Origin: a virus
Taxonomy: Duplodnaviria; Heunggongvirae; Uroviricota; Caudoviricetes
Length of the DNA: 11,057 nt
IMG/VR virus record: IMGVR_UViG_2923360383_000006
Strand: one strand, 5' to 3'
In this document: one piece after another, positions 1,923 through 2,002 of the stretch
Position numbering within the stretch: the first letter of the stretch is position 1
Layout: every line of letters begins with the position of its first letter
Translations under genes and position numbers: made by a program
The notes under the pieces: model-generated
What the model was told of the DNA's origin: nothing
The model's database searches: none
What the model saw: only the letters and a program-made list of their open reading frames with translations

Positions 1923-2002
1923 ATGAAAATGCAAAAACTAGCCTTTTTCCGCGCCGCTCCCGCCCCGTGGCAGACCACTCCACCGGGAGGACCCGTAAAA
2001 AA
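1923..2002 (-). other. Candidate cos site copy 1 (cosQ-like and cosN-like), lambda-type
   Basis: Minus strand reads TTTTTTACGGGTCCTCCCGGTGGAGTGGTCTGCCACG GGGCGGGAGCGG CGCGGAAAAAGG. Lambda right end/left end, from memory: TTTACGGGTCCTTTCCGGTGATCCGACAGGTTACG GGGCGGCGACCT CGCGGG. Shared blocks TTTACGGGTCCT, CCGGTG, ACGGGGCGG, CGCGG at similar spacing (29 vs 30 nt from GGGTCC to the presumed nick). Presumed 12-nt end at plus 1954-1965. Confidence 0.6.

Follow-up and report, generated by a model that had tools for sequence, protein, structure and literature searches.

A duplicated 80-base element in a small Escherichia coli phage satellite, very probably a lambda-type cos site

Introduction

That a phage-inducible chromosomal island (PICI) of Escherichia coli can carry two cohesive-end (cos) sites is already known from EcCICFT073, in which deletion and plasmid transfer showed both sites to be functional (Fillol-Salom et al. 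2018, ISME J, PMC6092414; Fillol-Salom et al. 2019, Mol Cell, PMC6739421). According to these two papers, the cosQ and cosN of the island resemble those of lambda, a phage cosB is missing, its cos1 is required for transfer by both lambda and phi80, and its protein RppA (c1503) binds the phage small terminase subunit (TerS) and redirects it to the island cosB. Rpp works through a heterodimer with the phage TerS (PMC6739421), and deletion of cos2 raised transfer by lambda (PMC6092414). Here, we analyze a stretch of 11,057 nucleotides (the window), IMG/VR virus record IMGVR_UViG_2923360383_000006, in which an earlier note, made from the letters alone, had pointed to a conserved 80-base element at positions 1923 to 2002 that resembles the lambda cosQ-cosN junction when read on the minus strand. 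We find that this small E. coli phage satellite very probably has a genuine lambda-type cos site in the element.

Two further groups of satellites are relevant, both as described in the preprint on capsid-forming PICIs (cf-PICIs). The gene set of the cf-PICIs comprises capsid, protease, portal, head-tail connectors, HNH, TerS, and the large terminase subunit (TerL). The cos-type Staphylococcus aureus pathogenicity islands (SaPIs) of the SaPIbov5 type, with Ccm, resemble the window in joining a helper-type cos with a major-capsid homologue in a satellite; they differ from it in being Gram positive and HNH dependent and in having no small terminase of their own.

Results

Strong evidence, and the main evidence, that points to a cos site is the homology of the element to phage cos regions, with 82-86% identity across about 125-135 nt and E-values down to 5e-34. 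Alignment to reference cos regions had been named beforehand as a test of the idea, and by such comparisons each part of the earlier interpretation is supported. The homologues lie directly upstream of terS and terL in phages and prophages; in cdtI, Tritos, mEp460, and the EC93 prophage, the element stands between the lysis genes and a block of DUF1441, terL, adaptor, portal, and ClpP-capsid fusion genes. The adjacent TerL of the carrier phages has matches to Pfam GpA_ATPase and GpA_nuclease. When IMG/VR was scanned for the cosQ-cosN core, at least 120 loci were returned, and all of those from this first scan had the cosQ-like heptamer GGGTCCT.

The junction of lambda (NC_001416), with nicks written as slashes, reads TTTACGGGTCCTTTCCGGTG..TTACG/GGGCGGCGACCT/CGCGG, and rebuilt from both ends of the record it is TTTACGGGTCCTTTCCGGTGATCCGACAGGTTACG/GGGCGGCGACCT/CGCGGGTTTTCGCTATTTATG. 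Aligned block by block, the element at the predicted place (cos1 below) has the lambda cosQ-cosN blocks with a spacer one base shorter: the lambda heptamer stands 23 nt before the left end, versus 22 nt in both copies in the window. Identical to lambda are the heptamer, 6 bases on either side of the left nick, and 5 bases after the right nick, the flanks common to both being ACG/GGGCGG and /CGCGG. The 12-mer GGGCGGGAGCGG, which would form the cohesive end, had been said to differ from lambda at positions 7-12; it does so at positions 7, 8, 9, 11, and 12, and position 10 has the same base. With 5 of the 12 bases different, the cosN is indeed not the canonical one of lambda and phi80. Partial dyad symmetry is shared, at 12 of 22 positions in cos1 and 10 of 22 in lambda. 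The TTTAC before cosQ, which the earlier note had counted as part of the lambda-like block, belongs instead to the terminator hairpin of the capsid gene, as its T-run, and the helper phages carry GACGGGTCCT or GTCGGGTCCT there, so conservation begins only at GGGTCCT. Further likenesses to lambda are a distance of about 180 nt from cosN to the terS start and a helper TerL of the GpA family; the differences, apart from the cohesive end, are that the cosB has no lambda R sites and that the small terminase is a DUF1441 protein with weak Nu1 similarity.

Taken directly, the similarity to lambda is modest yet above chance. The 20-mer ACGGGGCGGGAGCGGCGCGG, which spans cosN, occurs twice in the window against a shuffle expectation of 0.01. 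Local alignment of the 70-nt lambda junction to the window scored 18, compared with 12.2 ± 1.2 for 500 dinucleotide shuffles (z = 4.8, obtained with the milder of two scoring schemes), and 1 of the 500 shuffles reached the score. It is modest because this best alignment (query positions 4-55) fell on the second copy of the element, at 4458-4551, and because under the stricter scoring cos1 aligned to lambda over the 20-nt cosQ block only, with z = 2.0.

The second copy (cos2), which the earlier note had also seen, is in direct orientation, 2,535 bp from the first, and 89% identical to it over 94 nt. Its identity to HannyBb, Tritos, and cdtI is 92-94% from cosQ as far as the start codon of the phage terS, beyond which the sequences diverge; no terS follows cos2. 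In both copies, phage homology starts at cosQ, immediately after a terminator hairpin. Boundaries this sharp argue that the cos unit itself is under selection. The features of both copies are collected in Table 1.

The repeat could instead be a small protein gene on the plus strand, a structured RNA, or a terminator, as a plus-strand open reading frame (ORF) opens at the same ATG in each copy (1923-2117 and 4458-4643) and hairpins abut both copies. However, the 10 differences between the copies are all nonsynonymous, with none synonymous, and in Tritos and mEp460 the ORF stops after 29-33 codons; it is therefore not a gene. A search of Rfam with the element gave no match, and the hairpins lie outside the phage-conserved block. 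We rejected a coding or RNA element, for which there is no sign of plus-strand coding constraint and no Rfam match and which is excluded as far as sequence tells; its probability is close to negligible.

Table 1. Positions of the cos elements, the genes between and after them, and the repeat array, in window coordinates
Feature	Position	Strand	Remark
Terminator hairpin of the capsid gene	2018-1997	minus	GC-rich, with T-run; directly upstream of cos1 cosQ
cos1 cosQ-like heptamer GGGTCCT	1994-1988	minus	identical to the lambda heptamer
cos1 cosQ-cosN spacer	1987-1966	minus	22 nt
cos1 cosN 12-mer GGGCGGGAGCGG	1965-1954	minus	putative 12-nt 5' cohesive end, by homology
Right flank of cos1 cosN, CGCGG	1953-1949	minus	
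cos1 proximal conserved block	1906..1953	minus	I2-like, CGCGGAAAAAGGCTAGTTTTTGCATTTTCAT...; kept in all cosB classes
cos1 cosB inverted repeat TATGTTAA-N17-TCAACATA	1838..1870	minus	class D/E; candidate TerS binding site
Small-terminase homologue	1284..1769	minus	161 amino acids; DUF1441; PHROG 141
ClpP-protease/major-capsid fusion gene	2026..3939	minus	Pfam CLP_protease and Phage_capsid_4; between the cos copies
Terminator hairpin upstream of cos2	4553-4532	minus	
cos2 cosQ-like heptamer GGGTCCT	4523..4529	minus	after the upstream hairpin
cos2 cosN 12-mer GGGCGGGAGCGG	4489..4500	minus	
cos2 cosB	4297..4488	minus	class B (cdtI/Tritos/HannyBb); no terS after it
Perfect IHF consensus TAATTTATTGATA in cos2	4437-4425	minus	
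Two TTTTCACCTG repeats in cos2 cosB	4407-4398 and 4330-4321	minus	
Terminator-like hairpin after cos2 cosB	4270-4254	minus	
Iteron array	5286-5523		dense GGTGAACAGT repeats in both direct and inverted orientation, close downstream of the primase gene

The 12-mer is carried by more than 120 IMG/VR contigs and by the phages mEp460, cdtI, Tritos, and HannyBb. The GenBank records of cdtI and Tritos begin exactly at the homologous GGGCGGGAGCGT, and mEp460 has GGGCGGGAGCGG. Among the matches listed, position 12 of the 12-mer is T at 94 sites and G at 30, and most sites are then followed by a GpA-type terL. A looser scan of IMG/VR for the lambda-type layout returned many alleles at positions 7-12, the lambda allele being the commonest, so the variant end is one allele among many. 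Judged by these comparisons, a common lambdoid lineage (mEp460, cdtI, and Tritos) has it as the normal allele, and it is not private to the satellite. A GpA-family TerL would cut this cosN in a 12-nt stagger that leaves 5' cohesive ends.

In the loci L136-L238 of the looser scan, which have GGGTCCT, 21-24 nt, and then GGGCGG NNNNNN CGCGG, we noticed about a dozen alleles at positions 7-12, for example, CGACCT, CGCGCT, GAGCGT, AAGGCG, CGGACT, CTGGCT, and CAGCGG, with the nick-flanking bases fixed and flanks that otherwise resemble those of a lambda-type cos. The 16-kb "phage" vB_EcoS-606R10 was considered as a packaged satellite and rejected; it is a partial phage genome.

Phages sharing this cosN fall into classes by their cosB. 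Class A (mEp460) has the inverted repeat GTGTCGA-N17-TCGACAC, class B (cdtI, Tritos, and HannyBb) has two TTTTCACCTG repeats, class C has ATGTCGAA-N14-TTCGACAT, and class D/E has ATGTTAA-N17-TCAACAT. Across the at least 120 loci scanned, the cosB class equals the N-terminal class of TerS in every classifiable locus that bears a terS; among the matches listed, the counts are 53 for A, 21 for B, 17 for C, and 8 for D/E. As the two features are adjacent, physical linkage contributes to this match. The cosB of cos1 is of class D, which is rare, and the nearest phage among the matches listed is a single class E contig, L042. In coordinates that start at the first base of the 12-mer, the two are 93-97% identical from -20 to +59, 88% in the inverted repeat, 93% in the codons of the DNA-binding domain, and 53-65% in most of the remaining terS. 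By this classification, cos1 and cos2 carry different cosB classes on one island. Lambda and phage 21 reportedly form packaging-specificity classes in which cosB is matched with the N terminus of Nu1. The likeness here lies in a near-identical TerL and cosN combined with a cosB and a TerS N-terminal domain proper to each class (A, B, C, and E); the difference is that a satellite has a private class together with a terS of its own and, in addition, an orphan cos that belongs to another class.

The gene after cos1 encodes a TerS homologue (Pfam DUF1441, E = 4e-34; PHROG 141, "terminase small subunit," E = 3.5e-55) whose start lies 185 nt after the cos1 12-mer. A Nu1-like TerS had been predicted some 150-250 bp downstream of the element; the TerS and its place stand, and Nu1 likeness by fold is weak, so the label is plausible, backed by position and annotation. 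In a model made with AlphaFold2 (mean pLDDT, 78.5), an N-terminal beta-alpha-alpha-beta-beta-alpha winged helix-turn-helix is followed by long helices. Foldseek matched this model best to winged helices of the MerR type and to 6hn7_B (E = 0.3), which is one chain of the Rpp-TerS entry. Over the whole length (158 amino acids), the protein is 61% identical to the mEp460 TerS, and its identity is 96-97% between satellites versus 66-73% to phage TerS. Residues 1-47 are nearly identical to those of class E phage TerS, and residues 68-95, RKAWYQSERERLKFEQETAQLIPA, are identical in the satellite and all phage classes, with flanks of about 50% identity; these residues are a candidate for a shared assembly or terminase-contact surface. 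From its sequence, the satellite TerS is best described as a full-length mosaic in place of Rpp.

The DUF1441 protein could instead act in the manner of Rpp, coassembling with the helper TerS through the central helix, redirecting packaging to cos1, and blocking the helper. The identity of residues 68-95 between satellite and phage proteins, a C-terminal tail unlike the acidic tail of the phage proteins, the position of the gene directly after cos1, where EcCICFT073 has rppA, and the heterodimer mode of Rpp (PMC6739421) would all fit. The protein is, however, a full-length phage homologue and not a truncated mimic of a DNA-binding domain, and a conserved central helix is equally expected of a self-assembly or TerL-binding surface. 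It has no sequence similarity to RppA (c1503), and when the DUF1441 protein was compared by sequence with the PDB, nothing meaningful came up, neither Nu1 nor the Rpp structures. We regard Rpp-like action as doubtful.

The two direct cos repeats bound a capsid cassette found in 184 of 5,426 complete E. coli genomes. In a related satellite, L022 (5884-7338), the SSB gene is directly followed by a class D/E cos and terS, and both cos2 and the capsid gene are absent. The segment from cos2 to the capsid gene thus behaves as a cassette between direct cos repeats. This bears on whether cos2 is used at all. It might be a by-product of gain or loss of the cassette, either a relic or an additional cut site that does slight harm, rather than an adaptation to a second helper class, with packaging from cos1 only: L022 shares the backbone and does without cos2, cassette recombination would be expected to use or to leave two direct 94-nt repeats such as these, and deletion of cos2 from EcCICFT073 increased rather than reduced transfer by lambda. 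The G at position 12 of cos2 in the window, where other satellites have T, suggests gene conversion from cos1. Against this, cos2 keeps a whole cosQ, cosN, and cosB, the IHF consensus, and both repeats, is close to living phages, and loses homology precisely where the phage terS begins, at its start codon. Several related satellites also have an orphan cos site of class A or B, and the two-copy cassette is present in 184 genomes. That only cos1 is used is, in our view, unlikely.

Position 12 of the cos2 12-mer (window 4489) is G in the window and L034, as in cos1, and T in L017, L065, L087, and L107, as in class B phages. The G of cos2 could have come from gene conversion between the copies; in the islands with T, the ends from the two cos sites would differ by 1 base. 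In the related satellites L024 (11171), L037 (4116), and L105 (4104), an orphan cos of class A (mEp460) stands after the SSB gene in place of the class B cos of the window, with no terS following.

In E. coli HS13-1, which matches the window at 100%, the island lies between nfeF and a tRNA-Ile gene, and 49-nt direct attachment (att) repeats, which include the 3' end of the tRNA-Ile gene, enclose 11,382 bp. The minus strand carries all of the genes, in the order integrase, 228-amino-acid ORF, HTH_17 regulator, Icd-like gene, DUF4222 gene, D5-type primase, iteron array, small ORF, SSB gene, cos2, 68-amino-acid ORF, 637-amino-acid ClpP-protease/major-capsid fusion, cos1, 161-amino-acid DUF1441 protein, and 95-amino-acid ORF. 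Pfam domains identify the integrase (Phage_integrase and an arm-binding domain) and the primase (D5_N/Pox_D5), and the iteron array is probably the replication origin of the island. No tail, lysis, portal, or terL gene is present in the island annotation. At least 80% of the island is found in 34 genomes. The capsid fusion is 57% identical to the fusion protein of mEp460 and cdtI; among satellites it is mostly 93-99.5% identical, with 80% in L087. The earlier note had called the source a cos-packaged satellite, and the integrase, helix-turn-helix regulator, primase, SSB, iterons, and att repeats, the lack of tail, lysis, portal, and terL genes, and synteny with EcCICFT073 agree with it. By gene content and order, the window is a satellite of the EcCICFT073 family of PICIs. 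Membership of the cf-PICIs was rejected because the island has no portal, terL, or HNH gene; connectors are also absent, and only the protease-capsid fusion and terS of that gene set are present.

A decayed head-gene end of a defective prophage, with nonfunctional cos-like relics, would share the phage origin of the cos, terS, and capsid genes, and some relatives do adjoin truncated prophage terL genes. However, all island ORFs are intact, the capsid-cos-terS order differs from the phage order, and the island brings an integrase, a primase, iterons, and att repeats of its own. It is also widespread, as the counts above show, and its TerS and capsid proteins form a conserved satellite lineage, closer among satellites than to the phage proteins (57-73%). 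We consider decay very unlikely.

Two stretches at the edges of such islands may be mentioned. From the 95-amino-acid ORF to the att/tRNA-Ile end (window 1-1000), there is about 1 kb without a RefSeq gene and with short ORFs only, among them a minus-strand ORF at 1-303 without a Pfam hit. In L015 (9746-11514; E. coli strain 2A), and also in L034, L084, and L107, the last satellite ORF is followed, at a distance of about 360 nt, by a 5'-truncated gpA terminase gene and then by what remains of a head and tail module of helper type. This junction could be a tandem of satellite and prophage or a cos/terS recombinant.

The cos sites of EcCICFT073 were located in L011 at 15559 (plus strand), just upstream of rppA, and at 16298 (minus strand), both with the lambda 12-mer. 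The two islands share backbone and gene order (blastn blocks are co-ordered), two cos sites each with helper-like cosQ and cosN, and one cos directly upstream of a packaging-specificity gene, with a capsid-protein homologue upstream; the last ORF of EcCICFT073, of 93 amino acids, is 74% identical in amino acids to the 95-amino-acid ORF of the window. They differ in several respects. EcCICFT073 has the allele GGGCGGCGACCT and cos sites inverted around rppA, whereas the window has GGGCGGGAGCGG and direct repeats 2.5 kb apart around the capsid gene. Rpp of EcCICFT073 mimics the Nu1 DNA-binding domain and goes with no phage-type cosB, whereas in the window the phage cosB of cos2 is complete, and the partner of cos1 is a full-length DUF1441 homologue. 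Finally, EcCICFT073 has a lambda E-like capsid gene and a decoration gene in place of the ClpP-capsid fusion. Inverted pairs of lambda-type cos sites, about 340-940 bp apart, are also seen in L145, L150, L171, and L177, so the arrangement of EcCICFT073 is common.

Discussion

We interpret the 80-base element as the cosQ-cosN core of a working cos site of an EcCICFT073-type PICI served by helpers of the mEp460/cdtI/Tritos lineage, and give this reading a probability of roughly 0.8. What we observed are sequence homology, positions, the match of cosB and TerS classes, synteny, and prevalence; from these we infer the nick sites, the binding proteins, the use of both cos sites, and the packaging of multimers.

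In the proposed sequence of events, induction of a helper would lead to excision of the island and its replication from the iteron origin into concatemers. The satellite TerS would bind the inverted repeat in the cosB of cos1 through its N-terminal winged helix and bring in the GpA-family TerL supplied by the helper, a lambdoid phage of the mEp460/cdtI/Tritos lineage. TerL would then nick the two strands 12 nt apart at the conserved flanks, leaving 5'-GGGCGGGAGCGG ends. Packaging would proceed toward terS until the head is full, and the end would be cut at a downstream cosQ-cosN. About four units would make 45.5 kb, compared with 44.5-47 kb for the helper genomes, and this figure fits the suggestion of the cf-PICI preprint that the EcCICFT073 family packages multiple unit lengths in full-size heads. 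Small heads could also be made with the capsid fusion of the island, which is 57% identical to that of the helper.

Several observations weigh against this interpretation. In the literature on the 12-mer, mEp460, DUF1441, Tritos, and cdtI (coverage that did not extend to the cdtI paper itself), we found no measured ends, which leaves homology and the form in which the records were deposited as the basis for the nick positions, and the record starts of cdtI and Tritos may merely follow the lambda convention. The match between cosB and TerS classes may reflect linkage, not binding. A perfect IHF consensus is present in cos2, Tritos, and mEp460, and there is none in cos1. The C-terminal half of the satellite TerS is only about 50% identical to the phage proteins and is without their acidic tail, so the protein might not recruit the large terminase directly. 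Foldseek with the AlphaFold2 model gave no match at E ≤ 0.1, and hhalign of DUF1441 against Nu1 and Rpp gave a weak, co-linear N-terminal match with a probability of 33%. Given L022, moreover, cos2 appears dispensable for the family.

If the two sites of this PICI are both used, they may serve two packaging strategies. The orphan cos2 is a full cos of the cdtI/Tritos class, at which the TerS of a class B helper could start packaging directly; because cos2 would be usable by such a TerS, the island would hold both a private cos-plus-terS pair and a mimic of the helper cos. Packaging from cos1, whose cosB class is nearly private, would use the chimeric satellite TerS, with its class E DNA-binding domain, phage-identical central helix, and satellite-specific C-terminal half, together with a TerL common to several classes. 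We put this division of labor forward tentatively, as a possibility somewhat short of even odds.

The cos element itself is a new example of a known mechanism and introduces no new principle. The new points are modest: the duplication is direct rather than inverted, two cosB classes are found on one island, and a chimeric full-length TerS replaces Rpp. Since the variant end is standard in the mEp460/cdtI/Tritos lineage, the constraint it places on the helper points to known phages, and the probable mobilizers are lambdoid phages with a DUF1441 TerS and a GpA TerL (mEp460, cdtI, Tritos, and HannyBb), not lambda or phi80. The EcCICFT073 model would thereby be extended to a second helper lineage, with a full TerS homologue instead of Rpp. 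If the two strategies are real, cos sites and terS domains would be swappable modules that decide which helpers can be exploited, and the capsid cassette could be gained or lost by recombination from cos to cos.

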